Below are positions 5,320 to 24,000 of a stretch of DNA of 24,000 nt, piece by piece. The notes under the pieces are model-generated. The model did no database searches, had not been told where the DNA came from, and saw only the letters and a list, made by a program, of their open reading frames with translations. How positions within the stretch are numbered: position 1 is the first letter of the stretch; each line of letters opens with the position of its first letter. This stretch comes from an uncultured Hyphomicrobium sp. (lineage in GTDB: Bacteria > Pseudomonadota > Alphaproteobacteria > Rhizobiales > Hyphomicrobiaceae): positions 237 to 24,236 of the forward strand of contig CAZUKP010000045.1 of assembly GCA_964620915.1 (NCBI GenBank), written 5' to 3'. The position numbers and the translations under genes were made by a program.

Positions 5320-6465
<1,146 letters not shown>

Positions 6466-6477
<12 letters not shown>

Positions 6478-7044
6478 TTAGCAGTGATCATCACTAGCTA
6501 TGTCGCGCTTTGGTCATACCTCTGGTTCACCCGGGACAGACATCTCGATAGGCTGTCGCCTCGGGAGGAGCTCAAACGCTACTTCAATCTACTGTTCTTC
6601 ATCCTGGTCTATGTCTTCTCGGTCTACTTCGCGGCGAGCTTCTTCGCCGAGCAGGATGCGGCGTGGCATCAGACTGTGGTCCGCGATACGAGCTTCACTC
6701 CAAGCCACATCGTGCTCTTCTATGGAACGATGCCGCTCTACGTGTTGTTCGGCGTTGGCTCCTTCTTGTACGGGATGACGAGAATTCCAGCGTTTGCCAA
6801 GAATATCTCTATTCCTTTCCTGGTCGCCGTCGTTGGCCCTTTCTTGATCCTGCCGAACCTCGGGTACAACGAATGGGCCCATGCGTTCTGGCAGATCGAG
6901 GAGGTCTTCTCGGCGCCTGTACACTGGGGCTTTGTCATAATGGGCTGGAGCGTGCTCGGTCTGGGCGGTCTTTTGGTGCAGATCGTTCAGGGCACACTCA
7001 GTGCGATGAGGCGGGTGGACGGCGAGTCGCACGCACGAGCTTAG
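6466..7044 (+). CDS. amoC: Copper membrane monooxygenase subunit C (AmoC/PmoC family), N-terminally truncated; about 70-80 residues and the first two TM helices are missing
   Basis: Similarity to AmoC/PmoC begins at about [38 protein letters not shown], which corresponds to about residue 75-95 of full-length proteins. It continues through [28 protein letters not shown] and [22 protein letters not shown]. The Asp/His/His metal ligands are conserved (D at 6655-6657, H at 6667-6669, H at 6706-6708). The ORF-track portion 6091-6465 is antisense to the aldehyde dehydrogenase, not AmoC. The first in-frame ATG inside the homologous part is 6466. Confidence 0.75.
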
Positions 7045-7123: not shown

Positions 7124-7948
7124 ATGCAGAAGTTGGCTGACGCTGAGACCGTGCAAATCTATGGGGTAACGTGGTCTAAGTGGGCTGCGAGCCTATCGCG
7201 CCGATTTGATTTTCTTCTGGCGGTCATAGTTGGTCTGGCCATTATGTCCGCCTTCCACTTACATTTTATGCTTCTAGCCGGCGACTGGGATTTCTGGGTT
7301 GACTGGAAGGACCGACAGTGGTGGCCCACACTCACCCCGATTGTCGCCATCACGTTTCCTGCGGCTGTGCAGTATGTATTCTGGGAGAAATTCAGGCTGC
7401 CGATCGGCGCCACCTTTTCGCTCACGCTCTTGGTTCTGGCCGAATGGGCTTCGAGATATGGCGGATTTAATCTCTGGTCCGACTTCCCGGTGAGCTTGAC
7501 CTGGCCGGCCACGATCATTCCGGGGGCGATCGTTCTTGATTGCGTGCTTCTGCTGACCGGAAACTTCCTCCTGACCGCCATCTTTGGCGGCATGGCATTC
7601 GGCCTGATGTTCTATTCAGGCAACTGGCCGATGCTGGCGGCCTACCGGATCCCCATGGAGGTGATGAACACCATGGTTTCGGTGGGAGACTATATCGGTT
7701 ACGCCTTCCCCCGGACAGCCACGCCCGAGTACGTGAGGCTGATCGAACGCGGGACGCTGCGAACCTTTGGCGGACATTCAGCCTCCATCGCGGCATTCTT
7801 CGCCGGCTTTGCCTGCATCCTGATGTACCTGGTCTGGTGGTACATCGGCTGGTTCTTCGCCAGGCTCATCTGGGTACCCAACAAGCTTGCGACGGCGATG
7901 GGGTTCAAAAAGGAACACCACAAGGCAGATGAGGTGCCGGCGGTCTAG
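7124..7948 (+). CDS. amoA: Copper membrane monooxygenase subunit A (AmoA/PmoA family)
   Basis: 274-aa polytopic membrane protein with HLHFMLLAGDWDFWVDWKDRQWWPTLTPIVAITF, FYSGNWP, TPEYVRLIERGTLRTFGGHSASIAAFF and WWYIG, hallmark AmoA/PmoA blocks. Strong RBS upstream. Confidence 0.92.
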   Translation: MQKLADAETVQIYGVTWSKWAASLSRRFDFLLAVIVGLAIMSAFHLHFMLLAGDWDFWVDWKDRQWWPTLTPIVAITFPAAVQYVFWEKFRLPIGATFSLTLLVLAEWASRYGGFNLWSDFPVSLTWPATIIPGAIVLDCVLLLTGNFLLTAIFGGMAFGLMFYSGNWPMLAAYRIPMEVMNTMVSVGDYIGYAFPRTATPEYVRLIERGTLRTFGGHSASIAAFFAGFACILMYLVWWYIGWFFARLIWVPNKLATAMGFKKEHHKADEVPAV

Positions 7949-7957
7949 CGACCAAGG

Positions 7958-9289
7958 GTGGGACACAACGGCGTTAGGGATTGGAACCAGGAAATGGGCA
8001 AGAAAGTCGTTTTCACTATCAGGAAAGTCGGACGGCGAGTGACCCTGTTAGGACTCGCCGGATGGCTCGGGCTTGCGATCACGCTTTGCGGGCTATGCAT
8101 CAGCACGGACGCCTACGCGCATGGTGAGCGCAACCAAGAACCGTTCTTGCGCATGCGAACAGCGCAGTTCTGGGATGTGAAATGGAGTACCGACAAGCTA
8201 GGTGTTAATGACACTCTCACTCTGACTGGGAAGTTCAGGTTGTTCCCTGATTGGCCGAACAACCTTCCTCTGCCTGACTTGGCGTTCCTGGGCAGCGGCA
8301 CGGCCGGTCCGGTTTTGTCGCGGCTCGAGAGCTACATCAATGGTAAGCCGGCGATCCAATCAGGCAAGCTTGAGCTCGGCCGGGATTATGATTTCAAGGT
8401 GGTTTATAAGGGCCGCCAACCCGGCAAGCACCACGTTCACGCGCTGCTGAATGTGGATGGAGCAGGAGCGATCCTTGGCCCAGGAAAATGGGTCGAGGTG
8501 ACGGGAAACCAGGCAGACTTCGTACTTCCTGCGACCACGCTGGACGGCACCCAGATCGCGGATCTGAGTACGTGGGGACTCGGAACCGTCCTCGGATGGC
8601 ACGCGATCTGGATCGTAATCGGGCTTGCGTACATGCTCTGGTACATTTCCAAGCCTATGCTCATACCTCGTTACCTCGTGATTGAGGAGGGCGACCCGGA
8701 TACGCTCATCACGCGTTGGGACCGTATCTGGAGCGCTGGGTTCCTCATTCTTGCAGTTGTCACGGTTATCGTCGGTGTGCAGTGGGCCAATGCGGCCTAT
8801 CCCAGAACCGTCCCTCTGCAGGCAGGCGTCTTCAAAGTCGATCCCTTGCCGGACGAAACAGGTAACATCAAGGTGAATGTGGATCGGGCCGTATACGACG
8901 TTCCCGGACGGTCGATGCGCCTGGATTTAGAAGTGACCAACGATGGGACCGAGCCCCTCCGCCTCGGTGAGTTCACCACTGCGGGGCTTCGTTTCGTAAA
9001 CCAGGCCGTTCCCGAGGCCATCGCCGGCGTTGATGAGGACTATCCGGAGGATCTTGTTGCCCCTGAAGGGCTCAAGGTAGATGACGATAGCCCTATCCAA
9101 CCCGGCGAGACGCGCAAGCTTCACGTCGATGCGACGGACGCAGCGTGGGAGCTCGAACGTCTCACGAGCCTCTTAAATGATCCGGATAACCGGGTCGGTG
9201 GCCTGCTATTCTTCTTCGGTCCAGACGGCGATCGGAAGATAGCGAACGTCTACGGCCCGATCGTGCCGAATTTTACTAAGGCCGAGTAA
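7958..9289 (+). CDS. amoB: Copper membrane monooxygenase subunit B (AmoB/PmoB family)
   Basis: Signal peptide ending DAYA|HGERNQEPFLRMRT, with His at 8120-8122. HxH copper motif GKHHVHALLNV at 8429-8440. Two central TM helices, and a C-terminal cupredoxin-like region YDVPGRSMRLDLEVTNDG, GEFTTAGLRF, GPIVPNFTK. Start is GTG 7958 or ATG 7994 (MGKKVVF); undecided. Confidence 0.92.
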   Translation: MGHNGVRDWNQEMGKKVVFTIRKVGRRVTLLGLAGWLGLAITLCGLCISTDAYAHGERNQEPFLRMRTAQFWDVKWSTDKLGVNDTLTLTGKFRLFPDWPNNLPLPDLAFLGSGTAGPVLSRLESYINGKPAIQSGKLELGRDYDFKVVYKGRQPGKHHVHALLNVDGAGAILGPGKWVEVTGNQADFVLPATTLDGTQIADLSTWGLGTVLGWHAIWIVIGLAYMLWYISKPMLIPRYLVIEEGDPDTLITRWDRIWSAGFLILAVVTVIVGVQWANAAYPRTVPLQAGVFKVDPLPDETGNIKVNVDRAVYDVPGRSMRLDLEVTNDGTEPLRLGEFTTAGLRFVNQAVPEAIAGVDEDYPEDLVAPEGLKVDDDSPIQPGETRKLHVDATDAAWELERLTSLLNDPDNRVGGLLFFFGPDGDRKIANVYGPIVPNFTKAE

Positions 9290-9346: not shown

Positions 9347-9967
9347 ATGACGGCTTATCGATTAGCCCGGACCGCCTCGGTACGGAGTGCGGCCGGGATC
9401 GTTTCAGCGGCATTCATCGCGTTGGTTCCTCACCTGGCGTTTGCACATGGCGGCCTCAGCATGGAGAAGGACCTGTGCAAGCTGTTCATTGGCCCCTACA
9501 CCATGCATTTCACGGGGTATCAGCCCCTGACCTCCGGCACGCAGGAATTTTGTGAGGATATCCCCAATGTCGGCGAAATTGTCGTCGTGCTCGACGCGGT
9601 CGATTCTTCGCTCAGGAAGGTTCCCATCGATGTGCGGATCATTCGCGATACCGGGGTGCCTGAAACTGAGCAGGATGACATTGAAAACGTGACCGTGATG
9701 CATCTTCCGGCCAAGGTTTACTCGTCTGGGACCGTTTCGCTGGAGCACACATTTCCAAAGCCCGGGAAGTTCGTGGGATTGGTCACCGCGGTCGATCCGA
9801 ACGGAACCTATGTCTCCAGATTCCCTTTTAGTGTAGCCAGGAGTTGGAGTTGGATGACGCCGTATCTTCTGATCGGAATCGTCGTTTTGGCGGGCGCCGG
9901 GCTTTACTGGTACTCCACCAATCTCCCCAAGATGAGGGCGGCGCGGGCTCTTAGGAAGGCCCGCTGA
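9347..9967 (+). CDS. Membrane-anchored periplasmic protein, candidate PmoD/AmoD/AmoE-like copper protein (hypothetical)
   Basis: 206 aa. Signal peptide ...LVPHLAFA|HGG (His at 9446-9448), a beta-rich soluble domain carrying a C-x8-M-H cluster (CKLFIGPYTMH), and a single C-terminal TM helix (MTPYLLIGIVVLAGAGLYWY) with a basic tail. Architecture and position directly after subunit B match orf4/orf5 (amoE/amoD) and pmoD. Sequence homology not verified. Confidence 0.6.
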   Translation: MTAYRLARTASVRSAAGIVSAAFIALVPHLAFAHGGLSMEKDLCKLFIGPYTMHFTGYQPLTSGTQEFCEDIPNVGEIVVVLDAVDSSLRKVPIDVRIIRDTGVPETEQDDIENVTVMHLPAKVYSSGTVSLEHTFPKPGKFVGLVTAVDPNGTYVSRFPFSVARSWSWMTPYLLIGIVVLAGAGLYWYSTNLPKMRAARALRKAR

Positions 9968-9971
9968 CAGC

Positions 9972-10940
9972 ATGCACGGGTGCTCGGAGCTGTTGCGCAT
10001 CGATCCCCGTGTCTGGTTCCAATGGCCGGTAATAGCGGTCCTGCTCGCCGGTTGTCTCCCCGGATCCGATTCTGATCAGTCTACAGCAGTTGCCGCCTTT
10101 GATTATGCCGCGGCAGAGCGCCGTGGGACTTGCGAGACGGGCGCGAAGCCGGGCGCAGGCGGCGCGACCGACGGATATACTGGCAGCGTCACTTACAATG
10201 TCAGGGCGCCGGCAAATTACGATCCTTCATTCGCCCATCCTCTACTTGTGGTCTACGCTGCTGCGGGAATGACCGCGGAGGAAAGTGAGGAGTTCACAGG
10301 CTTTACCAAAGCGGCGACACAAAACGGATGGATTGTTGCCTACGCTGACCACAAGCGCATGTCCGTTGAGGCTGTACGTGACTTGGCAAAGCTGCCGGCT
10401 GAAGTCAGCGAGAAGTGGTGCATCGACATGAGTCGCGTTTACGCGACGGGCCATTCTGACGGTGGTACCGTATCCACGGCGATCGCGCTCTTGGACGGGA
10501 CCCGGGACACTTTGGCTGGGATTGCACCGAGCGCTGCCGGATTCCGCAAGAGCGACTTTGAGACCTTCAAATGTCCGTCGGCCCCGTTTCCGGTCATGGT
10601 GATGCACGGCAGCTGGGATGTGGCGTTTTACGGCTGGGGTAAACAGGCGGCCGAGTGGTGGGCATCCTGCAATGGTTGCAGCATGAGTGAGGCGCCGCGT
10701 CCCCTCGGCGATGGATGCGTCGCGTATGACGGCTGCGCTCGGGATGGCCCGACGGTTTACTGCGAGGGCCCACGATTGCACAGCCAATGGCCCGGCCTGT
10801 CGGCGCAGATCATCGACTTTTTCGACGCCGTACACGGCCGCTCCGGTATGAGCACGCCATCAGCAGCCATAGAGAGGACGCACGCGTCTGCAATGAAACC
10901 CCACAAGGTTGCCCGGATAAAACGAAAAAGTCGGAGGTAA
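9972..10940 (+). CDS. Lipoprotein alpha/beta-hydrolase, polyhydroxybutyrate depolymerase / esterase (LpqC-like) family
   Basis: Lipobox VLLAGC near the N-terminus, nucleophile elbow GHSDGG (GxSxG), a later HG motif (MVMHGSWD) and a Cys-rich C-terminal region as seen in COG3509-type esterases. A TTG a few codons downstream is an alternative start. Confidence 0.65.
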   Translation: MHGCSELLRIDPRVWFQWPVIAVLLAGCLPGSDSDQSTAVAAFDYAAAERRGTCETGAKPGAGGATDGYTGSVTYNVRAPANYDPSFAHPLLVVYAAAGMTAEESEEFTGFTKAATQNGWIVAYADHKRMSVEAVRDLAKLPAEVSEKWCIDMSRVYATGHSDGGTVSTAIALLDGTRDTLAGIAPSAAGFRKSDFETFKCPSAPFPVMVMHGSWDVAFYGWGKQAAEWWASCNGCSMSEAPRPLGDGCVAYDGCARDGPTVYCEGPRLHSQWPGLSAQIIDFFDAVHGRSGMSTPSAAIERTHASAMKPHKVARIKRKSRR

Positions 10941-10945
10941 AACGA

Positions 10946-11332
10946 ATGTGGATCGTAAGGCGCGCCATGTTGGTCGGCAGTACCGCCGTGGCGCTGGTCG
11001 TAAACCTCATCTGTTCGCCCGATGCTTTTGCACACGCGCAATTGGTCAAGTCGGAACCTGCGCGTCGGGCCGTGATTAGTGAATCGCCTAAGCAAGTTAA
11101 GCTCTGGTTCAACGAGGAGATCGAAGGCGCCTACGCCACGCTCACGGTGCTCGACAGCAAGGAGAAAGCCATTACGGAGAATAGCCCTGAAGTTGCGGCC
11201 GACGATCCAAAGCTTCTCACCCTGGCAGTGCCAGCTTTGCCGCGGGGTAAATATGTCGTCAAGTATCGCGTTCTTTCCGTCGATGGCCACGTGGTGGAGT
11301 CGACTTACGACTTCACAATAAAAGGCAACTGA
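10946..11332 (+). CDS. copC: Periplasmic copper-binding protein CopC (Cu(II)-site-only type)
   Basis: ATG at 10946 has GGAGG 8 nt upstream. Signal peptide ...SPDAFA|HAQLVKSEP, with mature N-terminal His at 11033-11035. The D-x-H ligand motif is SVDGHVVES. The mature sequence contains no Met, so it lacks a Met-rich Cu(I) site. The 53-codon upstream extension in the ORF track overlaps the esterase gene. Confidence 0.9.
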   Translation: MWIVRRAMLVGSTAVALVVNLICSPDAFAHAQLVKSEPARRAVISESPKQVKLWFNEEIEGAYATLTVLDSKEKAITENSPEVAADDPKLLTLAVPALPRGKYVVKYRVLSVDGHVVESTYDFTIKGN

Positions 11333-11347
11333 CCAGAGTTTGTAACA

Positions 11348-13372
11348 ATGATCGAAGTCATCGGCGCGACCGCGAAATGGTTGCAGCTTGTCGCCAATAT
11401 GCTTCTCGTTGGGGCGTTTACGTTTTTCGCCATCACGGCATACGACCGTGCGGGTGTCGACAACCAATGGCTCGACCGCCTGGAGCGCGCTTTGCCCGGG
11501 TTGACGGTGGCCTCAGCCATTCTTCTTATCGTTGTTCTGGCGATTACGGCGGCCGAGGTCACTGACGTCGCCGGTAATGCGTTTAAGCCTGACGCGTGGT
11601 GGGGTGTCCTCAAGAACACTTGGCTCGGGAAGGTTTGGACGGCCCGCATGGGTCTAACGCTGCTTGTCCTCCTGCCCGCTACCGCCTACACACGCATCGC
11701 TCCGAGTGCCCGCTGGCGCTATTTGCTCTGCGCCGGAATTGCTGCGGCGGTGTTGGCGGCGGGAGCTTTTTCCAGCCACGCGGCGGCCGAGGAGGCGCCG
11801 TGGCTCGCTATCGGACCATACGCGCTTCACATTGTCCTAGCCGCTGTTTGGCTTGGCGGCCTGTCGGCCTTCCTCGCCGTGCTCTACGGCTCGTCTCCGC
11901 GCGAATCGCCGCGATCGCCTCAGAGTTATTCTGCCACCACTGCGATCACGCGCTTCTCCGCGATGGCGCTACCGGTGATGGCCGGCATCGTCGCAACCGG
12001 TCTGATAGTCGCCAACAACCAGATCGAGTCGCGATATGCCGCTCTCGTGTCCACCGACTATGGCTGGTTCTTGGTTAGCAAGCTCGGCTTGCTGTGCGCC
12101 ATCCTGGTCATCGCCTCCTACGCACGGTTCGCTTGGCTACCTTCGTTAGAGAAGGGAGATCCGGACGATTCGGCATGGCGCCCGCTTCGCACCGGCGTCA
12201 GCGTCGAGTTCGGGCTCGCCATCTTGCTTGTTCTTGCGGCGACGCTATGTGCGAGTTCGATACCAGCCAAGCATGCTGTGATCGACCAGTGGCCCTATTC
12301 GTTCCGCTTCTCGCTGAAAGCGACCCTGGAACTCCCGGAGACGATCACCAATCTCGTCGTAGCGGGCGTATTGGTCTTTGCAGCCGCGGCGGCGGCCGTC
12401 ACTTGGGTTGGCGGACGCGTGCGCTGGTCCCGCGCCGCCCTCAGTGCGAGCATTATTCTCACTGTCGCTTCGGCCTGCATGACGCTCTATGCCATCGCCA
12501 CGGCGGCAAGCGTCGACACCTACCGAGGCAGTGCAGTTCCTTTCGACGCTATTTCAATTGCGCGCGGCGCTCATCTCTTCGCCGAGAACTGCACGATGTG
12601 TCATGGACCCCAGGGAAAGGGCAATGGCCCGCTCGCTACCAGCCTTCCCAAAAGCCCGGCGGATTTGCTGACCGAGCCGCATACAGCAAGACATTTGGCC
12701 GGTGACCTTTATCACTGGATCAAGGTCGGCATTCCTGCGGGCGAAATGCCCGGCTTTGGTCACAAGCTCTCCGAGGACGACCGCTGGGACGTCGTCAACT
12801 TCTTGCATGTTGTATCGAGGGGGTACGAAAGCAGAATCTTGCGCACGCGTGTGGTGCCGGACAGCCCGTCGGAGAATCTCGGTGCGCCCGACTTCTCGTT
12901 CGTCGACCAGCATGGAAACTCGCACACGCTAAAGGACTACCGGGAGAAGAAATCCGTGCTGCTGGTGTTTTTCAAGTGGCCGGAGGCAGAAGAGCGCCTG
13001 AAGACGCTTCAGGCTCAATATGCAGCGATCCAGTCCAACGAAGCCGAGGTCATCGCTATCCCGTGGGGTGGCAGCGCCCCCGATCGGAGTTGGGCCGAAA
13101 AGTTGCCTTTTCCCGTCGCTCAGGGCAGCAGCGAAATCGGCGAGACATACGCAGCTTTCCGTCGGTCGCTCGGCCATCCGGACCTGTTCGGGGCTGGAAT
13201 AGTTCCAGATCGCATGGAGTTACTCGTGGACCGGTTCGGCTATCTGCGCGGACGCTGGCTCCCTGCCCAAGACGAAACGGGCTGGGACGACACCAACCGG
13301 CTCGTTGCACAGCTCGGCCAGCTTCGAAGCGAAGACGAGATCTTACCGCCTGCAGAAGACCACGTGCATTGA
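11348..13372 (+). CDS. copD: CopD-family inner-membrane protein fused to a class I c-type cytochrome domain and a C-terminal thioredoxin-fold (AhpC/TSA/redoxin-like) domain that lacks the CxxC cysteines
   Basis: 674 aa. About 10 predicted TM segments over the first 400 residues, immediately after copC. Heme motif CTMCH at residues 415-419 (12590-12604) with a downstream GEMPGFG candidate Met ligand. From about 12884 the pattern APDFSFVDQHGNSHTLKDYREKKSVLLVFFKWPEAEERL resembles TlpA/ResA/peroxiredoxin, but WCxxC is replaced by WPEAE. Confidence 0.85.
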   Translation: MIEVIGATAKWLQLVANMLLVGAFTFFAITAYDRAGVDNQWLDRLERALPGLTVASAILLIVVLAITAAEVTDVAGNAFKPDAWWGVLKNTWLGKVWTARMGLTLLVLLPATAYTRIAPSARWRYLLCAGIAAAVLAAGAFSSHAAAEEAPWLAIGPYALHIVLAAVWLGGLSAFLAVLYGSSPRESPRSPQSYSATTAITRFSAMALPVMAGIVATGLIVANNQIESRYAALVSTDYGWFLVSKLGLLCAILVIASYARFAWLPSLEKGDPDDSAWRPLRTGVSVEFGLAILLVLAATLCASSIPAKHAVIDQWPYSFRFSLKATLELPETITNLVVAGVLVFAAAAAAVTWVGGRVRWSRAALSASIILTVASACMTLYAIATAASVDTYRGSAVPFDAISIARGAHLFAENCTMCHGPQGKGNGPLATSLPKSPADLLTEPHTARHLAGDLYHWIKVGIPAGEMPGFGHKLSEDDRWDVVNFLHVVSRGYESRILRTRVVPDSPSENLGAPDFSFVDQHGNSHTLKDYREKKSVLLVFFKWPEAEERLKTLQAQYAAIQSNEAEVIAIPWGGSAPDRSWAEKLPFPVAQGSSEIGETYAAFRRSLGHPDLFGAGIVPDRMELLVDRFGYLRGRWLPAQDETGWDDTNRLVAQLGQLRSEDEILPPAEDHVH

Positions 13373-13425: not shown

Positions 13426-13902
13426 ATGAAAGGAAAATGGATCGTTGCCCTCGTAGGCACGGTGCTCCTGTGGACGACGCCAGCGTGGTCGCACAGTGAC
13501 GAATTTTTCGACAGCAGACCTTCAGCCCATGGTGGTCAGACCCGCATGGCAGGCCCGTACCACCTCGAGCTCGTGCCCGGTAAGGACGAAGTAACCGTCT
13601 ATGTGACCAATCACATTGAACAGGATGTCCCGACGGCGGGCGGTGAAGGCAAGGTCGTTGTCAAGGCGAAGGAAGGCGACGTCACGATCATGCTGAAGCC
13701 TGCCGGCAATAACATGCTCAAGGGTAACGGCACGTTCACTCTCGACCAGGGCACGGTTATCGTGCTCTTCGTGAAGCTGCCGGAGCACGAGGCCCAGGCG
13801 GCCAGGTTCACGCCGCTGAAGCCCAAAGCCAGCGCTGCCAAGCCCGATGACGACAGCGCTCATGGCGACGGCCATGGTCATCATGATCACGATAGTCACT
13901 AA
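13426..13902 (+). CDS. Periplasmic His-rich protein, putative metal-binding protein/metallochaperone (hypothetical)
   Basis: RBS aaggagag upstream. Signal peptide ...TTPAWS|HSDE (His at 13492-13494), a beta-rich core (YHLELVPGKDEVTVYVTNH) and the C-terminal tail SAHGDGHGHHDHDSH. Confidence 0.75.
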   Translation: MKGKWIVALVGTVLLWTTPAWSHSDEFFDSRPSAHGGQTRMAGPYHLELVPGKDEVTVYVTNHIEQDVPTAGGEGKVVVKAKEGDVTIMLKPAGNNMLKGNGTFTLDQGTVIVLFVKLPEHEAQAARFTPLKPKASAAKPDDDSAHGDGHGHHDHDSH

Positions 13903-13950: not shown

Positions 13951-14358
13951 ATGACGAAAACTAGTGGAGCGTGCCTATGCGGAGCCGTGACGTATAACTT
14001 TGATGCTGAACCGCAAATGTTGGCGCTATGTCATTGCTCGCATTGCCAGAAAGCCACGGGCTCGGCCTTTTCGATGAACTTGGGAGTCCCGATCGAGAGC
14101 GTGCAAATGGAGGGAAAGCCGTCAGTGTATGAAGACGTCGGAACCTCCGGAGAACCGGTGCTGCGCATGTTCTGCGGCAAGTGCGGTTCAGCCATCGCGA
14201 CCGAAGCCAAGGCATTTCCGGGGGTTCTGTTCATAAAGGCTGGTACCCTCGACGATGTATCCAAACTGGAACCAGATATGGAGATCTGGACGGGCTCCTC
14301 GCAGGCATGGGTGTCGCCTTGCGCCAAGGCCAAGAGGTTCCCTGCCAATCCCGGCTAA
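13951..14358 (+). CDS. GFA family protein (glutathione-dependent formaldehyde-activating enzyme / CENP-V fold, Zn-Cys)
   Basis: 135 aa with the characteristic cysteine pattern GACLCGAV, CHCSHCQK and FCGKCGS. Confidence 0.85.
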   Translation: MTKTSGACLCGAVTYNFDAEPQMLALCHCSHCQKATGSAFSMNLGVPIESVQMEGKPSVYEDVGTSGEPVLRMFCGKCGSAIATEAKAFPGVLFIKAGTLDDVSKLEPDMEIWTGSSQAWVSPCAKAKRFPANPG

Positions 14359-14395: not shown

Positions 14396-15328
14396 ATGCA
14401 CTCTCGGCCGCAAGGGGTCAGACCCAGCGCACCGGCGGAGATGTTCGAAGGGTTTGAGCACAAGCTGGTCGATGTGGATGGCATCCGCATCGCCTGCACC
14501 ATTGGCGGATCTGGTCCGCCCGTGCTTCTGCTGCATGGTTTTCCTCAGACCCGCGCGATGTGGGCCAAGGTCGCGCCGCAACTCGCCGAGTCTTACGCCG
14601 TTGTCTGCTCCGATCTCCGCGGCTATGGCGACTCGGACAAGCCGCAATGTCTGCCCGACCGGTCGAACTATTCTTTTCGAACCTTCGCTGCGGATCAGCT
14701 TGGCCTTATGCGCCAACTGGGTTTCGAACGATTTCACCTAATCGGGCATGATCGTGGCGGCCGCACCGGACACCGCCTTGCCCTGGATCACCCTGAGGCC
14801 CTGTTGAGCCTTGCCCTACTGGACATTGTGCCCACCCATTTGATGTTCACCCGAACCAATTGGGCCCTGGCCCAAGCCTATTGGCATTGGTATTTTCTCG
14901 CCCAGCCCGAGCCCCTCCCAGAGCGGCTGATTGGCGCCGACCCGGACTTCTTCTACGAGAGTTGTCTCGTTGGTTGGGGTGCAACGCCGCTGTCGGACTT
15001 CGATCCGGAGATGCTAGCCGAGTATCGTCGTGCCTGGCGGCACCCTGGCATGATTCACGGTTCCTGCGCAGACTACCGTGCCGCCTTTAGCCAAGATTTC
15101 GCCCACGATGACGCCGACATCGACAAGAAGGTCGCCTGCCCCACGCTCGTCCTCTACGGCGCGTCCGGAGTTATGGCGCAACTGTTCAACATTCCGGAGG
15201 AGTGGCGGAAACGGTGCAGCCGCGTAATGGAGGCTTCGTTGGAGGGCGGTCATTTTTTTGTGGATCATTTGCCGAATGAGGTCTCGCACCTGCTGCTATC
15301 GTTCCTCGGCGGCAGCGCAGATGACTAG
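14396..15328 (+). CDS. Alpha/beta-hydrolase of the fluoroacetate / haloacetate dehalogenase H-1 family (Asp nucleophile)
   Basis: [23 protein letters not shown], Asp-nucleophile elbow [11 protein letters not shown] including the two Arg, YWHWYF (His/Trp halide pocket), SCADYRA and GGHFFVD (catalytic His) match my recollection of characterised fluoroacetate dehalogenases (Burkholderia FAc-DEX FA1, R. palustris RPA1163). An alternative start is ATG 14441. Confidence 0.75.
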
Positions 15329-17779: not shown

Positions 17780-20479
17780 TTATCCTTCTCGCGAGAGAAT
17801 GGAAGCCGGAAACCGGCTAAGGGTGTCTGCCACTGAAAGTGTGGAGCCAGCTTTGACAATGCCGTTTGTAAGGATGTCGCGGAACGGCCGGTTGCCGATA
17901 TTTTCGGGCAACCGGACAGCAGTCTGTCCCCAGCGCTCCGGCGGGACAAACGGCGTATGCTGATCGTGGAGGAGATCGAGAGTCAGCCGGGGCACAATCA
18001 CGATCGCCGCCTGATCGCCAAACACGCGCGCGAAGGCCAGCACATGCTTGGCCGCCGGTCCCTCCACCTGCAAGGGCACATAATCGCCCTTGCCAAACAG
18101 GTCTTGGCGATCGAGGCGGACCCTCAATCCCGTTTGCAGCAAGAACATTTTGGGGACGCCGCTTCGCCAATGGGCGAGGAGCGTTTCGGGGGTGGCATCG
18201 AGCTTGGCTTGCGTCGCTTGGCAGTGATCGAAATCGACCGGGCGGCGATTGTCGGGATCGACCAGGCTCAAGTCCCAAAACTCGGCCCCCTGGTAAATGT
18301 CGGGCACGCCGGGGGCTGTCACTCTGATTGCGCTTTGCGTCAAGCTGTTGAGGGCGCCGGCGATGAAGACCGGTTCGCAAGCAGACACAAAGTCGCTCAG
18401 AAATACGCGCGACTTGGCCGGATCGAGAACGCTCCGTGTGAAGCTTTCGATCGCCTCTTCATAAGCGGCATTCTGTCCGGTCCAGCTCGTGTGAACCTTG
18501 GCCTCGCGCACGGATTTCAACATGAAGCCGGTTAAACGCTCGCTCAGAGTGGCAAGTCCTTCAACATCGCCGGGCTTCAGGTCTGATGGCCACACGCCGG
18601 CGAGGGCCTGATAGAACATCCACTCCGTCTCGGCCTCAGGCACGGCAATGCCCTCGACCTCCCGCCGATGATCTTTGTTCAGATCCGACCAGCGGCGAAC
18701 CGCCTTTGCCCATGACTCAGGCATCTCGCTCAGAACATAGAGTCGGGCACGGGCGTCCTCGCCGCGCTTGGTGTCATGGGTCGATCCCGCGCTAAGTCCG
18801 GCAGCCTGACGCCGCAAGCGCCTTATCATCGCGGCGTGAAACGCGTCGGCCGGCGCGCCGAACCGGTCCGGCTCGCCGCCGACCTCATTCAGCGCGATCA
18901 GGCGGTTGTAGCGGTAGAACGTGGTGTCCTCGAGCGCTTTAGCCATGACCGGACCGGAGGTCTGCTGGAGACGCGTGGCAAATTCGAGCGCGGACGCCTG
19001 GTCCTCGGGGGAGTCGAAGTCGAGGGCAAGCGCGCGGCCGAGGAAGTCGATCGCGTGCTCGTCTTCGACCTCACGCGTTCCCTTGGCCTTCTCGATAGCC
19101 GCGGCGAGAATGGCCCGGTCCTCATCGTGCGCACCCGTCACGTCGACATAAGTGCGGTAGACGGGAAGCGCCGCGACCAGCTCGATGATGGCGCGGCGGA
19201 GCGTGTCGGTGCCGAGATCCCGTGTTGCCAGGTGGCGCGCGGCCAGAGCCCCCGCCATGTCCTTGAGCCGATCGAGCTCGCCGGCAAGATTCCGGGTAAG
19301 CGTGCGCCTCTTGGTCTCGAGCGCGAGCGCGGCATAATCCACATGCTCACCGAGAAAGCCCTCGTAGGCCTCGGTCATGGCGGCTTCGCCGTCCGGATCG
19401 ACCAGGAGCCCGGCGAGGCTGGTAATGAACTCGTAGCCGGTCGTGCCGGCAACGGGCCATTCAGCGCGCAGCTCCTCCTCAGGCCCCAAAATCTTTTCCA
19501 CCACGAGATAAAGCGGATCGCTCTCGCCGAACGTCTTTTGCAGGCGTTCGAGATAGCCGTTCGGGTCGGCCAAGCCGTCGATGTGATCGAGGCGCAAGCC
19601 ATTGACGCTTCCCGATGCAACGAGTTCGCCGACCTTTGCATGCAGCTCATCGAACACGCGCGGACTTTCCACTTTCAACCCGACCAGGTCGGCGATCTCG
19701 AAGAACCGGCGATAGGTCAGTGTCTCCCGGGCAACGCGCCAATAGGTCAGCTGCCAAGTCTGCATCTCATGCAGCTCATGCAGGGCGTTCGTGTCTGCGG
19801 CAACCGCGGCGATGGCAGTTTCAATTACCCGCCTGGTTTCGTTTTCCTGCGCAGCCTCGGCAAGCTCGGCCTTTAGGCCGGGCGAGGTCTCCGGCGTCAC
19901 GACCGCGAAGCGCCGTGCCCATTCGGCAAATTCGTCGCCTTCGGTGCGGGCAAGAACATGGGCATAAGACGGGGGCGTGATCGGGAGCTTGAGGCCGCCG
20001 TAGGAGAACGTGATGCCGCCATCGTTCGTGTCGAAATTGAGCCCGAACTTCCCTTGTTCCAGAGCCTCGCCATAGCTCGTCCCCAGGGCCGGCACGAGCA
20101 GCTTGGGCGCCGCCCAATCGATGTCGAAGAACTGGGCGTAGTCGCTGGCCTGTCCCCACTCCAGCACGTCACGCCAATAGGGATTATAGGTCGATGCACT
20201 CATATGGTTGGGCACGAAATCGAGGAGGAAGCCGAGCCCTTCCGCCTGGAAGGCCGCGATCATGCGTTTGAAGCCCTCATCCCCGCCGAGAACTGGGTCG
20301 ATGACGCAATCGTCGACCACGTCATAGCCGTGCGTCGACCCCGGCTCGGCCTTGAAGATCGGCGATCCGTAAACATGGCTGATGCCGAGGCGCGCCAGGT
20401 ATGGCGCAAGGCCCGCAGCCCGCTCGAAGGTCAGGCTGTTGCGGAACTGCAAGCGATAGGTTGCTGACGGGACGATCAT
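17780..20479 (-). CDS. treY: Malto-oligosyltrehalose synthase
   Basis: 899-aa ORF starting MIVPSATYRLQFRNSLTFERAAGLAPYLARLGISHVYGSPIFKAEPGSTHGYDV, with LRLDHIDGL and other GH13 TreY signatures. Its ATG overlaps the malQ stop (ATGA). Confidence 0.92.
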   Translation of the reverse strand: MIVPSATYRLQFRNSLTFERAAGLAPYLARLGISHVYGSPIFKAEPGSTHGYDVVDDCVIDPVLGGDEGFKRMIAAFQAEGLGFLLDFVPNHMSASTYNPYWRDVLEWGQASDYAQFFDIDWAAPKLLVPALGTSYGEALEQGKFGLNFDTNDGGITFSYGGLKLPITPPSYAHVLARTEGDEFAEWARRFAVVTPETSPGLKAELAEAAQENETRRVIETAIAAVAADTNALHELHEMQTWQLTYWRVARETLTYRRFFEIADLVGLKVESPRVFDELHAKVGELVASGSVNGLRLDHIDGLADPNGYLERLQKTFGESDPLYLVVEKILGPEEELRAEWPVAGTTGYEFITSLAGLLVDPDGEAAMTEAYEGFLGEHVDYAALALETKRRTLTRNLAGELDRLKDMAGALAARHLATRDLGTDTLRRAIIELVAALPVYRTYVDVTGAHDEDRAILAAAIEKAKGTREVEDEHAIDFLGRALALDFDSPEDQASALEFATRLQQTSGPVMAKALEDTTFYRYNRLIALNEVGGEPDRFGAPADAFHAAMIRRLRRQAAGLSAGSTHDTKRGEDARARLYVLSEMPESWAKAVRRWSDLNKDHRREVEGIAVPEAETEWMFYQALAGVWPSDLKPGDVEGLATLSERLTGFMLKSVREAKVHTSWTGQNAAYEEAIESFTRSVLDPAKSRVFLSDFVSACEPVFIAGALNSLTQSAIRVTAPGVPDIYQGAEFWDLSLVDPDNRRPVDFDHCQATQAKLDATPETLLAHWRSGVPKMFLLQTGLRVRLDRQDLFGKGDYVPLQVEGPAAKHVLAFARVFGDQAAIVIVPRLTLDLLHDQHTPFVPPERWGQTAVRLPENIGNRPFRDILTNGIVKAGSTLSVADTLSRFPASILSREG

Positions 20480-22347
20480 GGCGTGCGCGGCCGTTCCCGC
20501 GCGACCGCCGATGTCACCGCGCGGAACAGCTCGGTCGCGGCGATCTCGTCGAGAGTCATCGGCAGTTTCCGGCGCCAGTTCGGGTGCTCGTCGACCGTTC
20601 CCGGAAGATTGGCTTGTTCCAGCTTGCCTGCCAAATCCTCAATCTGCACCGCGAACATGCGTGATGCCGACTTGGCAAGCAAGGTATGGGTGGTCACCAC
20701 GACGGTCTCCGGCAGATCGTCGGGGCAGGGGCGGGTCCCATGCAAAACCCCCTCCATTGACGGCGGCAAGAGACCGCACTCGTTGAGTGCCGCGAGAAGA
20801 CGGCAGCGATCGTTTGCCCGTGCCTCCCGCGCCTGGGCCGCGCTTGCGGGAGAGGCGATCCCCACCCTTGCGTTTTCGTCGATATCGCTCCCCGCCCACC
20901 AGCCCCTTAACGTCGGAAGATCGTGCGTCGAGATGCAGGCAAGGGCCCGGTGAGCGTAATCGGCGGGCGCGCGGAAACGGGCGTCCCCCTCGCGCTCGAA
21001 ATAGAACACGCGGTAACCTTGAATTTCGGCTTCGTGCATCACCTCGCGAAACCCTTCAGGCACCGTGCCAAGATCCTCGCCGATGACGATCGTGCGCCGG
21101 GCCTGGGAGACTTCGGCAAGAACGCGAAGCATATCGCCGAGCGGATAGGTGAGATAGGCGCCGTTTCTCGCCTCGATCTCCTGTGGGATCAGATAAAGCC
21201 GCTTCAGACCCATGGCATGATCGATGCGGACAGCGCCTGCGCTGCGCATGAGTTCGTCGAGGACATCCTTCAGCGGCTCGCAGTGGCGCGCGGTAAGCGC
21301 GGTGGGAGAAAGCGGGGCGAGCCCCCAGTCCTGGCCTCCTTGGTGGAGCATGTCAGGCGGGGCGCCGAGACGGGCTTGTCCGAGCACCGTATCCGGCTCG
21401 GACCAGGTATCGGCCCCGTCCGGTGCGACGCCGACGGCAAGATCGAGATAGAGACCGATGCGCATGCCGGCAGCAAGAGCGCGCTCCTGAGCGTGCCGAA
21501 GCTGCGTCTCGGCCAGCCATTGCAACCACATATGGAAAGCGATGCGATCGGCATTGTCTTGTCCGAACTGCCGCACCGCATCTGCATCGGCCTTCCGGTA
21601 CGCCTCAGGCCAGCCAGGCCAGCCGGCAGGATAGCCTTGGCCGACAAGATCTTCCGACAGCGCCTCGTAGAGAGCAAAGCGGACGAGCGGCGCTCCGCGC
21701 GCGGCGCAGAACTCGGTGAACCGCGTCATGGCTTCGGGCTCGGACCGTTTAAACACACGGTAGGCCTCGTCCAGCGCGCGCCGCTTAAGCCGTGTCACTT
21801 CGGAGTAATTCACGAACTCGCTTGCGCGCGTAGCCGCGGCCGCTTCTCGGTCTGCCGGCACTGCGTATGGCGTTTTATCGAGAGCGATATAGAGGGGATT
21901 GAGGAAGCGTCTGCTCGAGGGCGAATAGGGGCTGATACGCGATGGGTCGGCCAGGAACAGCGCGTGGAGTGGATTCACCCCGATAAAATCGGCGCCGGTA
22001 GACGCAGCGAGCTCGGCCAGCCGGGCGAGGTCTTCGAAGTCGCCAATGCCCCAATTGCGGTCCGAGCGAAGCCCATAAAGTTGGCAGGTGATTCCCCATA
22101 CGCGCCCGTGCGCGAGCCAGCCGGGCATAAAGCAGCGCACGTCCGCCGCCGTCGTGCTGTCGGCTGTGCGTTGCGGCGCCGATTGCAGGCTCGCGGCGAT
22201 CTCGGCCTCGTCCGCGGCTGCGATTCCCAACACGCGCAACAGAGCGCGCTTGGTTGCATCGCTGGCGATGCAGTGTTCGCCTGCTTCGCTGATGTAACTC
22301 GGCTCGATACCGTAAGCCTGAGCCAGCCGGTCAAGAGTGTCGCTCAT
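20476..22347 (-). CDS. malQ: 4-alpha-glucanotransferase (amylomaltase, GH77)
   Basis: From MSDTLDRLAQAYGIEPSY (ATG 22345-22347) the product is 623 aa, with WGITCQLYGLRSDRNWGIGDF, GVNPLHAL, VRIDHAMGL and IGEDLGTVP. The 81-codon upstream extension in the ORF track overlaps the treZ coding end. Confidence 0.88.
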   Translation of the reverse strand: MSDTLDRLAQAYGIEPSYISEAGEHCIASDATKRALLRVLGIAAADEAEIAASLQSAPQRTADSTTAADVRCFMPGWLAHGRVWGITCQLYGLRSDRNWGIGDFEDLARLAELAASTGADFIGVNPLHALFLADPSRISPYSPSSRRFLNPLYIALDKTPYAVPADREAAAATRASEFVNYSEVTRLKRRALDEAYRVFKRSEPEAMTRFTEFCAARGAPLVRFALYEALSEDLVGQGYPAGWPGWPEAYRKADADAVRQFGQDNADRIAFHMWLQWLAETQLRHAQERALAAGMRIGLYLDLAVGVAPDGADTWSEPDTVLGQARLGAPPDMLHQGGQDWGLAPLSPTALTARHCEPLKDVLDELMRSAGAVRIDHAMGLKRLYLIPQEIEARNGAYLTYPLGDMLRVLAEVSQARRTIVIGEDLGTVPEGFREVMHEAEIQGYRVFYFEREGDARFRAPADYAHRALACISTHDLPTLRGWWAGSDIDENARVGIASPASAAQAREARANDRCRLLAALNECGLLPPSMEGVLHGTRPCPDDLPETVVVTTHTLLAKSASRMFAVQIEDLAGKLEQANLPGTVDEHPNWRRKLPMTLDEIAATELFRAVTSAVARERPRTP

Positions 22348-24000
22348 GGCCGGGGCCGGGATTGCGGCGGCACATCGCTGAGCCGCACGACCACAGACCA
22401 GGGGGGGAGGGTGCCGGATTGCAAGCCTGCCGACAGGCCCGGGACTGTTTCGTAGATCAGCTTTCCGGTCGCGGCCTGCCGCACCGAGGTTGGAAGCTTC
22501 CAGATGTCGCCGCTGAGATTTGCAAATAGCACCAGCTCGCTTCCCTCGCCGAGCCGCCACTGGACGGCAAGCCCTTGCGTGTCGGCGCAAAGCGTCGTGC
22601 CGGCATTGCCATCGATGCTCACAAGCCGAGGGGCAATCTCGCGCCGCCGGATTTCGAGCAAACGCCCGACCAGATCGGCCCGCTCGCTATAGGGTGAAGC
22701 CGATTGTTTGTCCCAATCGATCTTCGACGCCTGGAATGTCTCTTCGGCATTCGGGTCCGGGATTCGCTTTCGGGTCTCAGGATCCTGAAAGCTTTGCCAA
22801 CGTCGAAACTCATTGCGGCGTCCCTCGCGAACCTGTTCGCCAAGCTCGCCGTGAAAATCCGTGAAATAGTAGAACGGCCGGGTTTCGCCCCACTCCTCGC
22901 CCATGAACAGCAGCGGAATCTGCGGGCTCAAGAGCAGAATTGCGAGCAGGGCCTCTATGGCTTGCGGTGAGGCCAATGACGAAAGCCGCTCGCCGAAGGC
23001 GCGGTTTCCGACCTGGTCGTGATTTTGCAGGAAATCCACGAAAGCTGTAGGCGGCAGACCCGCGCTCGGTTCGCCGCGGCGCGCGCCATCGCGGAAGACC
23101 GACGGCTCGCCCTGATAGATGTAACCCTCGGCCAGCGCGCGCGCGAGCTTCGCCACCGGAGCCTCGGTGTAGTCGCGGTAATACCCGTCGGACTCGCTCG
23201 TCGCGATGACATGGGCGGCATGATGGAAATCGTCGTTCCATTCGCCCGTGTACAATGTCGGCATGCCGTCTTGGCGTGGATGGAGACTGACGATGTTGCG
23301 ATCGTCCTCGGTGGTCAGATGCACCGGACGATCCCTGATGCGGCTTCGTATCGCGACCGCGATCTCCTCAAGCAAAGACGGCTTGGATTTATCGCGAATC
23401 TGATCGATGGCATCGAGGCGTAAACCGTCGAACCGGAATTCCTCCAGCCAATAAAGGGCGTTCTCGATGAAGAAACTGCGGACCGGCGCGCGGTCGTAAG
23501 CGATCGCGGCACCCCACGGCGTGTGGTCCTCGGGATGGAAGAACTCGGGCGCATAGAGATGCAGGTAATTCCCGTCAGGACCGAAATGGTTGTAGACGAC
23601 ATCGAGAAGGACCATCAGCCCGCGCGCATGTGACGCGTCGATCAGCCGCTTGAGCGCTTCGGGACCGCCATAAGCGACATGCGGCGCATAGAGCAACACG
23701 CCGTCATAGCCCCAGCCGCGATTGCCGGAAAACTGTGCCACAGGCATGAGCTCGATCGCGGTCACCCCGAGTTCGACGAGGTCATCGAGCTTGGCTTCGA
23801 TGCCGGCAAATGTTCCTTCTTCGGTGAAGGTGCCGGGATGAAGCTCGTAGATGACGGCCTCCTCCCAAGGCCTGCCTTGCCAATTTGAGCTTCGCCAATC
23901 GTAGCCGCGCGGGTCGATCAAGAGGGAAGGGCCGTGCACGTCGCCGTCTTGAGCTCGCGCCGCGGGGTCCGGCACGCGCATGCCATCGGGCAATTGGAAC
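22344..24000 (-). CDS. treZ: Malto-oligosyltrehalose trehalohydrolase (GH13), 5' end beyond the window
   Basis: VPDPAARAQDGDVHGPSLLIDPRGYDW...WEEAVIYELHPGTFTEEGTF...GYDGVLLYAP...FDGLRLDAID...WNDDFHH...NHDQVGNR are TreZ/GH13 blocks. The frame stays open to base 24000, and the N-terminal CBM48-like part is missing from the window. Confidence 0.9.
   Translation of the reverse strand, partial: FQLPDGMRVPDPAARAQDGDVHGPSLLIDPRGYDWRSSNWQGRPWEEAVIYELHPGTFTEEGTFAGIEAKLDDLVELGVTAIELMPVAQFSGNRGWGYDGVLLYAPHVAYGGPEALKRLIDASHARGLMVLLDVVYNHFGPDGNYLHLYAPEFFHPEDHTPWGAAIAYDRAPVRSFFIENALYWLEEFRFDGLRLDAIDQIRDKSKPSLLEEIAVAIRSRIRDRPVHLTTEDDRNIVSLHPRQDGMPTLYTGEWNDDFHHAAHVIATSESDGYYRDYTEAPVAKLARALAEGYIYQGEPSVFRDGARRGEPSAGLPPTAFVDFLQNHDQVGNRAFGERLSSLASPQAIEALLAILLLSPQIPLLFMGEEWGETRPFYYFTDFHGELGEQVREGRRNEFRRWQSFQDPETRKRIPDPNAEETFQASKIDWDKQSASPYSERADLVGRLLEIRRREIAPRLVSIDGNAGTTLCADTQGLAVQWRLGEGSELVLFANLSGDIWKLPTSVRQAATGKLIYETVPGLSAGLQSGTLPPWSVVVRLSDVPPQSRPRP

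Follow-up and report, generated by a model that had tools for sequence, protein, structure and literature searches.

The window analyzed here is a stretch of 24,000 nucleotides from an uncultured Hyphomicrobium sp. (contig CAZUKP010000045.1), and all coordinates are positions within that whole stretch. An open reading frame (ORF) on its plus strand, at 11348-13372, starts with ATG and runs as a single continuous frame coding for 674 amino acid residues. Pfam and NCBIfam domain boundaries bore out the three-part layout that an earlier inspection of the DNA, here called the sequence-only reading, had proposed, and confirmed that the product is a true three-domain protein in which CopD is combined with a heme c domain and with a thioredoxin-like domain free of cysteine.

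The CopD-type membrane domain spans residues 1 to 390 (11348-12517, plus strand), as indicated by Pfam CopD, NCBIfam copper_CopD, identity to YebZ, hydropathy and the positive-inside pattern. The Pfam CopD (PF05425) match covers residues 199 to 299 (E 9e-19; 68.2 bits against a cut-off of 32.1). The NCBIfam copper_CopD profile (NF033808) aligns with residues 9 to 300 over profile positions 7 to 288 of 295, with a score of 111.7 bits that lies below the cut-off of 195, such that the equivalog level was not reached. A class I cytochrome c domain follows at residues 391 to 492 (12518-12823, plus strand), supported by Pfam Cytochrom_C (also Cytochrome_CBB3; residues 404 to 487, E 8e-15) and by the PDB entry for CytC552. 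The cysteine-less domain with a peroxiredoxin/TlpA-like thioredoxin fold occupies residues 511 to 661 (12878-13330, plus strand) and was assigned using Pfam AhpC-TSA, Foldseek and a PDB profile search. Its AhpC-TSA match at residues 513 to 606 exceeded the gathering cut-off (26 bits) with a score of 35.5 bits, which rose to 39.1 bits when the C-terminal domain was scanned alone.

A hydropathy scan predicted 10 transmembrane (TM) helices, i.e., the 8 helices of CopD and 2 additional ones; TM3 (about residues 95 to 115) falls under the hydropathy threshold and was placed by eye and from the structural model. The density of Lys plus Arg in the loops alternates along the chain both in this protein and in the family, with mean values over 80 diverse relatives of 0.17 to 0.27 versus 0.00 to 0.08 per residue, which argues that both termini lie outside. 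The two helices beyond the eight of CopD would bring the chain back outside and thus place the heme domain and the last domain in the periplasm, as heme attachment requires. A periplasmic location of both is predicted for this protein and family-wide, and the prediction of 10 TM helices with both ends outside according to the positive-inside pattern agrees on this point with the sequence-only reading.

The membrane domain shares 26% identity with Escherichia coli YebZ, in which mutation data show that the pair His135/His154 (numbering of that paper) is essential for copper uptake (PMC11923076). Conservation and the alignment with YebZ identified a corresponding pair predicted to face the periplasm, composed of His144 (11777-11779) and His161 (11828-11830) and spanning 11777-11830 on the plus strand. 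His161 is aligned exactly with the second YebZ His, and His144 is one column off the first, beside a gap. In the alignment of 80 diverse relatives from which all residue conservation counts were taken, His144 is kept in 78 sequences and His161 in all 80. The domain thus has at least eight TM helices and two conserved periplasm-facing His residues, as in CopD. The strict retention of the His pair for copper uptake indicates that the transporter part is under selection. The protein is a CopD-family transporter carrying the functional His pair, with copper import itself being predicted. A third conserved His residue, His309 (12272-12274, plus strand), is found in the periplasmic loop after TM8 (PAKH), a region of low confidence in the model, and is kept in 78 of the 80 relatives.

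The heme motif is CTMCH (C415-T-M-C-H419) at 12590-12604, precisely where the sequence-only reading had placed it, and Met467 in the motif MPGF (12746-12748) is the probable axial ligand. Both the CxxCH motif and a distal Met, the hallmarks of class I cytochromes c, were found using the Pfam profiles and the alignment with CytC552. The heme site is almost invariant among the 80 relatives (C415 in 79, C418 in 79, H419 in 80 and M467 in 79), and CxxCH is present in 76 of 77 full-length representatives that are 29 to 60% identical to this protein. The domain is thus predicted to be a periplasmic heme c with a complete set of ligands, with heme attachment and redox activity likewise predicted. Its surface also harbors a conserved His pair, His445 and His449 (EPHTARH; 12680-12694, plus strand), kept in 74 and 75 of the 80 relatives, respectively.

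The best PDB match of the heme domain was CytC552 of Thioalkalivibrio paradoxus (7o9u/9vr0; E 7e-18). CytC552 has an exposed heme with a midpoint potential of about +160 mV and takes electrons from a tri-copper enzyme, thiocyanate dehydrogenase (TcDH) (PMC9456337). His445 is aligned with His83 of CytC552, a residue that the authors of that work placed in the electron transfer path to the TcDH copper site (PMC9456337). The motif DL..EPH...H.GDL is common to both heme domains, and the likeness extends to the His-rich flexible termini of CytC552 and to its being the electron partner of a copper enzyme. In contrast with CytC552, which is a soluble, stand-alone protein, the heme domain analyzed here is tethered between a transporter and a domain with a thioredoxin fold.

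The fold of the last domain was examined using an AlphaFold2 model of the full-length protein, which has a mean predicted local distance difference test score (pLDDT) of 78.8, with about 90 for residues 510 to 660, and a predicted template modeling score (pTM) of 0.56. Foldseek matched the model to Bcp4, ResA, AhpE and TlpA, with target-normalized template modeling scores of 0.69 to 0.75 and E values of about 1e-5. Searching the PDB with a 25-sequence family profile retrieved AhpE (E 5e-8), followed by Bcp, ResA and TlpA. Pfam, Foldseek and the PDB profile therefore agree on a thioredoxin-like fold. The domain resembles the 1-Cys peroxiredoxin AhpE/Bcp and the thiol-disulfide oxidoreductases TlpA/ResA in its fold and in the order of its strands and helices, and it differs from them in having no Cys, a three-residue loop deletion, Ser or Ala in place of Cys, a family His in place of Arg, and an extra C-terminal PPxDHxH tail.

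The sequence-only reading had noted that WPEAE (12977-12991) stands in place of the WCxxC motif, which our analysis supports. It had also described the fold as redox-dead, and in the thiol sense this holds, as residue 418 is the last Cys of this protein and 120 relatives likewise have none beyond that point. Neither the PxxxTxxC motif of a peroxidatic Cys nor a CxxC redox motif is present in the domain. In 67 of the 77 diverse full-length representatives, the last 175 residues are devoid of Cys as well. A one-off loss of Cys in this organism was rejected, as the loss is shared family-wide, and the loss is, as these alignments indicate, ancestral to the family. The peroxidatic Cys of AhpE is aligned with position 547, which is Ala here and Ser in 57 of 80 relatives, and its catalytic Arg116 with position 622, which is Arg here (13211-13213) and His in 71 of 80. 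The loop corresponding to the Thr-x-x-Cys active site is three residues shorter than that of AhpE. Other residues of the domain are strongly conserved, namely R550 (78/80), Y601 (75/80), E624 (79/80), D628 (80/80), R634 (80/80) and R636 (79/80). The last domain is thus a thiol-free thioredoxin fold whose pocket has been remodeled yet is conserved, with Ser and His in most members. Arg622 (13211-13213) together with Ala547 (12986-12988) represents an unusual departure in this putative pocket; Arg is found at position 622 in just 2 of the 80 relatives, and the closest homologs of the protein also have His622.

A Sco-like nature, which has been suggested for such domains (PMC11923076), was considered and found to be unsupported by Pfam at E <= 1 or by the PDB profile at E <= 10. 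No Pfam match to SCO1-SenC was obtained at E <= 1, no Sco chain was among the 44 PDB profile matches listed at E <= 10, and the CxxxC ligands of Sco are absent.

The protein ends with a tail (13331-13369, plus strand) that terminates in PPAEDHVH-COOH and includes His672 and His674. This tail was delineated by its conservation in the family and its low pLDDT, about 25 in the model, which indicates a flexible end. The sequence EDHVH provides a C-terminal HxH-COOH motif, and an HxH terminus was also found in 128 of 151 domain hits and in 74 of the 77 full-length representatives (29 to 60% identity). H672 is kept in 77 and H674 in 78 of the 80 relatives. Altogether, eight conserved His residues face the periplasm in the predicted topology. 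We propose that the tail may serve as a copper-binding arm. No mention of a PPxDHxH-COOH tail was found in the literature searched.

To what extent the fusion is distributed was determined using several searches. A word-seeded search retrieved 578 relatives; the best 120 of these align over the entire query (100% coverage), and nearly all of them are 669 to 676 residues long. A scan with one genome per GTDB species identified at least 265 genomes with a collinear full-length relative. Taxa with full-length relatives include Nitrosomonas, Nitrosospira, comammox Nitrospira, Rhodocyclales and alphaproteobacterial metagenome-assembled genomes (MAGs). The closest genomes are two uncultured Alphaproteobacteria MAGs (60 to 61% identity); identity amounts to 44 to 51% with the Nitrosomonas, Nitrospira and Azoarcus proteins, and to 74% with the best metagenomic match. 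Using phmmer exhaustively with the last domain alone (residues 495 to 674), we obtained 343 clusters at 50% identity, 152 of them at E <= 1e-10, and almost all of these matches are the C termini of proteins of 600 to 775 residues. Stand-alone forms of the last domain were looked for among hits of roughly 200 residues and rejected as truncated gene calls, since nearly all of them have their start within the cytochrome domain, mostly at or just upstream of the MPGF/MPAF motif. The last domain thus appears to occur only in this fusion. The fusion itself is old and stable.

The sequence-only reading had implied a new architecture and knew of no characterized protein of this kind. In agreement with the latter, no biochemically characterized member was found in the literature searched. 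The implied novelty did not hold, as the architecture has already been described: about 4% of CopD sequences have a cytochrome domain linked to a Sco1/thioredoxin-like domain, and CopD of Methylosinus trichosporium OB3b belongs to this cytochrome/Sco1-or-thioredoxin-like subgroup (PMC11923076, 2025). One relative is annotated at JGI as 'putative copper export protein/mono/diheme cytochrome c family protein/peroxiredoxin', and the fusion corresponds to the standard copD of the amo clusters of betaproteobacterial ammonia oxidizers and comammox bacteria and of other operons for copper membrane monooxygenases (CuMMO). Papers on ammonia oxidizers and comammox bacteria present copCD as copper homeostasis genes of the amo cluster and leave the extra domains undiscussed, and CopD was seen by proteomics at low abundance in Nitrosomonas europaea and Nitrosospira multiformis. 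What stood of the earlier interpretation is the domain assignment, the periplasmic placement and the redox-dead thioredoxin fold; its redox idea is reasonable as a proposal.

The protein is a fairly divergent member of this known, widespread and uncharacterized family. With the CopD subgroup of amo/pmo operons it shares the same three domains in a full-length collinear arrangement, the copC partner and the neighborhood of PmoD/AmoD and CuMMO genes. It differs from that subgroup as a divergent lineage with Arg for His622 and Ala for Ser547, by an operon with an extra esterase-like gene between pmoD and copC, and by a monooxygenase that groups with that of a propanotroph and not with those of known ammonia oxidizers. 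Beyond the published descriptions, our analysis adds the ancestral loss of Cys, the Ser and His that replace the peroxiredoxin Cys and Arg, the non-Sco-like nature of the domain by profile, its occurrence as a fusion-only domain, and the near-universal HxH-COOH terminus.

The fusion gene belongs to an operon whose genes are all on the plus strand and separated by short gaps. In order, these include a 5'-truncated xmoC (6463-7044; Pfam AmoC, with homology starting at 6466), xmoA (7124-7948; Pfam AMO) and xmoB (7958-9289; Pfam Monooxygenase_B, and NCBIfam AmoB_BACT with 528 bits for a cut-off of 336). These are followed by a gene for a periplasmic copper protein of the PmoD/AmoD family (9347-9967; PDB 6cpd PmoD, E 1e-21), a gene for a 322-residue protein resembling esterases or polyhydroxybutyrate depolymerases (9972-10940; weak family hits, with an NCBIfam score of 47.8 bits, below cut-off) and copC (10946-11332; Pfam CopC). 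Downstream of the fusion gene (11348-13372; Pfam, NCBIfam) are a gene for a secreted 158-residue protein with a His-rich C terminus, HGDGHGHHDHDSH (13426-13902), conserved at this position in related loci, a GFA gene (13951-14358) and an alpha/beta hydrolase gene (14396-15328), the latter two assigned by profile.

The gene context was compared across 83 loci, 80 from the genome scan and 3 from contig look-ups. In the window, copC ends 15 nucleotides before the fusion gene, and 82 of the 83 loci have copC as the immediate upstream neighbor of the fusion; the remaining locus is cut by a contig end. A PmoD/AmoD homolog is found upstream of copC in 67 loci, and xmoA/xmoB lie inside the fetched flank in 27. 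We also analyzed five distant representatives, all of which have copC directly upstream of the fusion. Two of these distant members (33 to 36% identity) belong to operons of xmoCAB, two small ORFs, copC and the fusion, one of them with a MimR-like activator and a Toluene_X porin. A strict specificity for CuMMO was rejected, as the other three have no CuMMO genes within 8 kb. Together, the 82 of 83 loci with copC and the three distant loci without CuMMO show that copC is the universal partner of the fusion and that CuMMO genes are a frequent but not obligatory one.

CopC, the periplasmic Cu(II)-binding partner, shares 29% identity with YobA, the copper-binding CopC homolog of E. coli, including the junction between the signal peptide and His1. 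Its mature chain probably starts with His (AFA/HAQL) and has no Met, which makes it a CopC of the Cu(II) type that lacks a Met-rich site for Cu(I). The PmoD homolog has the pattern C-x7-T-M-H, compared with C-x7-M-x-H in the CuA-forming PmoD. As the Met is shifted by one position, a PmoD-type CuA site may not form in this homolog. For the 158-residue protein, no match was found in Pfam, NCBIfam or the PDB; a homolog is encoded directly downstream of the fusion in 33 of the 83 loci, in Nitrosomonadaceae and the clade of the window, and the His-tailed protein is a candidate further partner in copper handling. The esterase-like gene between the pmoD-like gene and copC is present in 5 of the 83 loci only, in the clade of the window, Azoarcus sp. 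DD4 and a Rhodocyclales MAG.

The 5' end of xmoC meets that of an aldehyde dehydrogenase gene on the minus strand in a head-to-head arrangement (6300-6480), and both genes are truncated at this end. AmoC homology begins abruptly at position 6466, which corresponds to residue 79 of 271, and a trace of AmoC residues 1 to 78 could be found nowhere in the window. In the aldehyde dehydrogenase frame (5320-6333, open to about 6478), the Pfam match sets in at profile position 142. The junction at 6466 reflects either an assembly mis-join or a real deletion or rearrangement, which would leave an AmoC of 193 residues that starts with the ATG at 6463. A single promoter-like site was found, at 6332-6360; scanning for promoters and terminators between the operon genes revealed nothing above the shuffled background, and an Rfam scan of the window gave no matches.

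The closest monooxygenases come from two MAGs of uncultured Alphaproteobacteria, Azoarcus sp. DD4 and a Rhodocyclales MAG. XmoA is 79% identical to its counterparts in the two Alphaproteobacteria MAGs, 69% to that of the propanotroph Azoarcus sp. DD4, whose monooxygenase has a Toluene_X porin upstream, and 66% to that of a Rhodocyclales MAG, with 45 to 54% identity to AmoA of Nitrosomonas and Nitrospira. No hao genes were found in the window, where the cluster is followed by the GFA and hydrolase genes. The substrate of the monooxygenase may be a hydrocarbon or an unknown compound instead of ammonia; the NCBIfam AmoB_BACT score above its cut-off (528 versus 336) speaks against this reading. 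The region at 17780-24000, on the minus strand, contains an 899-residue ORF of the alpha-amylase family, a 4-alpha-glucanotransferase gene and a third long ORF, i.e., genes of the glycogen/trehalose type. Its GC content is 62 to 64%, compared with 56 to 60% in the monooxygenase cluster, a difference compatible with the latter forming a separate genomic island.

Known CopD systems offer a frame for interpreting the fusion. E. coli YebZ and Bacillus subtilis YcnJ, characterized copper importers of the CopD family, have the CopD fold, the two essential periplasm-facing His residues and a CopC partner in common with it, the latter being a separate protein in YobA/YebZ and fused in YcnJ. YebZ differs in having 8 TM helices and no soluble domains. 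YcnJ also has a C-terminal extracytoplasmic accessory domain, which is of the YtkA type instead of a heme domain and a thioredoxin fold; this YtkA domain of the CopC-CopD protein contributes to CuA assembly (PMC13344008). No reductase is known for CopC/CopD systems according to the same 2026 study of YcnJ (PMC13344008). The role that we propose below resembles that of the cupric reductase CcoG of Rhodobacter capsulatus (cited in PMC13344008), in which the enzymatic conversion of Cu(II) to Cu(I) is coupled to the trafficking of copper at the membrane, a resemblance that is a functional analogy only.

In the mechanism that we propose, the CopD transporter in the inner membrane would receive Cu(II) from periplasmic CopC. 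One electron would pass, in either direction, between the heme and copper bound to CopC or to the CopD His pair. Most likely, Cu(II) would be reduced to Cu(I), and the reduction would release copper from the Cu(II)-only site of CopC. Copper might then be transported, or be relayed via the periplasmic residues His144, His161, His309, His445 and His449 and the terminal HxH, to end at the monooxygenase or a PmoD-type partner. The redox role is suggested by the fact that the heme domain is homologous to a cytochrome acting as the partner of a copper enzyme, and by YcnJ with its YtkA domain as a precedent. The sequence-only reading had put forward coupled Cu(II)/Cu(I) chemistry, which would fit a context with a Cu(II)-type CopC beside the fusion and a heme domain close to CytC552. 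CuMMO genes are in the same cluster in the window, its relatives, Nitrosomonadaceae, comammox Nitrospira and two distant members (33 to 36% identity). That the fusion is the copD of a CuMMO operon and a CopC-partnered transporter is much firmer than this mechanism. The analysis establishes the domains, the topology, the conserved residues, the linkage to copC and the frequent linkage to CuMMO; that the heme acts on the redox state of copper, in which direction it does so, that the tail binds copper and that the monooxygenase is supplied with it are inferences. Taken as a whole, a CopC-fed transporter with a one-electron Cu(II)/Cu(I) module and a His hand-off arm serving the monooxygenase is a tentative model, to which we give somewhat less than an even chance. 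Its more specific form, in which an intrinsic cupric reductase (or oxidase) is built into the CopD transporter and the terminal HxH arm shuttles copper, is doubtful.

Several other explanations can be weighed against this model. One of them, that a frameshift or a misassembly joined separate genes, is barely credible. A separate rearrangement or assembly breakpoint does exist about 5 kb upstream, at about 6466, and is all that speaks for an artifact; the same length (about 673 residues) and order of domains recur in at least 265 species genomes, and the same ORF is present in the complete isolate genome of Azoarcus sp. DD4 and in draft assemblies of isolates such as Nitrosospira multiformis. 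The artifact was therefore rejected, the frame being conserved across hundreds of genomes, and the separate-genes scenario by which the sequence-only reading might have been overturned did not materialize. It is also very improbable that the C-terminal domain works as a peroxiredoxin or as a thiol-disulfide oxidoreductase and protects or reduces a partner such as Sco or apocytochromes. Although AhpC-TSA scored above its cut-off and the structural matches are peroxiredoxins, ResA and TlpA, Cys is absent past the heme motif in the 120 close relatives and from the last 175 residues in 67 of 77 diverse representatives, the Thr-x-x-Cys loop has lost three residues, and 71 of 80 relatives have His in place of the catalytic Arg. 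Activity of a peroxiredoxin or TlpA-like oxidoreductase was thus rejected at the sequence level.

Two further alternatives give the heme and thioredoxin-like domains another role in the same operon. They might form a non-redox copper chaperone or docking module, in which the thioredoxin-like domain and the HxH tail would bind copper or dock to PmoB, PmoD or CopC, with the heme being structural or a sensor that gates transport in response to the redox state of the periplasm. The remodeled but conserved pocket (Ser547, His622, Arg550, Glu624, Asp628, Arg634, Arg636) and the retained HxH terminus would suit such a module, for which the YtkA domain of YcnJ represents a precedent as a delivery domain (PMC13344008), and the last domain has been likened to Sco1 (PMC11923076). 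However, the full set of heme ligands (CxxCH and Met) is present in 79 to 80 of 80 relatives, and close homology to an electron transfer cytochrome argues for a working redox center; the PDB profile matches listed at E <= 10 include no Sco and the CxxxC ligands are lacking. We consider this alternative rather unlikely. Alternatively, the protein might be a membrane-anchored cytochrome c that serves as the electron partner of the monooxygenase itself, supplying or removing electrons in CuMMO catalysis or activation, with the CopD part acting mainly as an anchor beside the enzyme. The gene shares a cluster with xmoCAB in many lineages, the heme domain is similar to cytochromes known as partners of copper enzymes, and the physiological reductant of CuMMOs is unsettled. 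In contrast, linkage to copC is universal and linkage to CuMMO is not, the CopD His pair for copper uptake is strictly kept, and a single His/Met heme c is expected to be too high in potential as a reductant for O2 activation. A dedicated electron partner is thus improbable.

A number of observations also weigh against the proposed redox-driven copper delivery. In the 80-sequence alignment, conserved Met or Cys residues such as Cu(I) transporters usually have are missing from the membrane domain, and Met211 is Met in only 39 of the 80 relatives. According to the current YcnJ model, CopC hands Cu(II) on to CopD (PMC13344008), from which it follows that reduction may not be needed or that the heme acts in the opposite direction. 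The relative arrangement of the domains in the structural model is uncertain (pTM 0.56), and in the protein of the window the usual His622 and Ser547 of the family are replaced by Arg and Ala. As regards the link with the monooxygenase, three distant members are accompanied by copC and lack CuMMO genes within 8 kb, and with a 5'-truncated xmoC the copy of the operon in the window may not be fully functional. Finally, no experimental study of any family member was found in the literature searched.

As the architecture has already been catalogued, the value of the present analysis lies in a testable mechanism and a map of conserved residues, not in a new type of protein. The route by which copper reaches ammonia, methane and alkane monooxygenases and the oxidation state in which CopC/CopD move it are unresolved, and a 2026 review of ammonia monooxygenase mentions neither CopC nor CopD. 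With a heme and a conserved His-ended arm joined to a CopD transporter, the family provides a direct experimental handle on both questions. If a cupric reductase (or oxidase) is indeed built into the transporter, it would supply the reductase described as missing in the CopC/CopD field, and particulate methane, ammonia and alkane monooxygenases would be metallated by a redox-driven route that is complete in itself.

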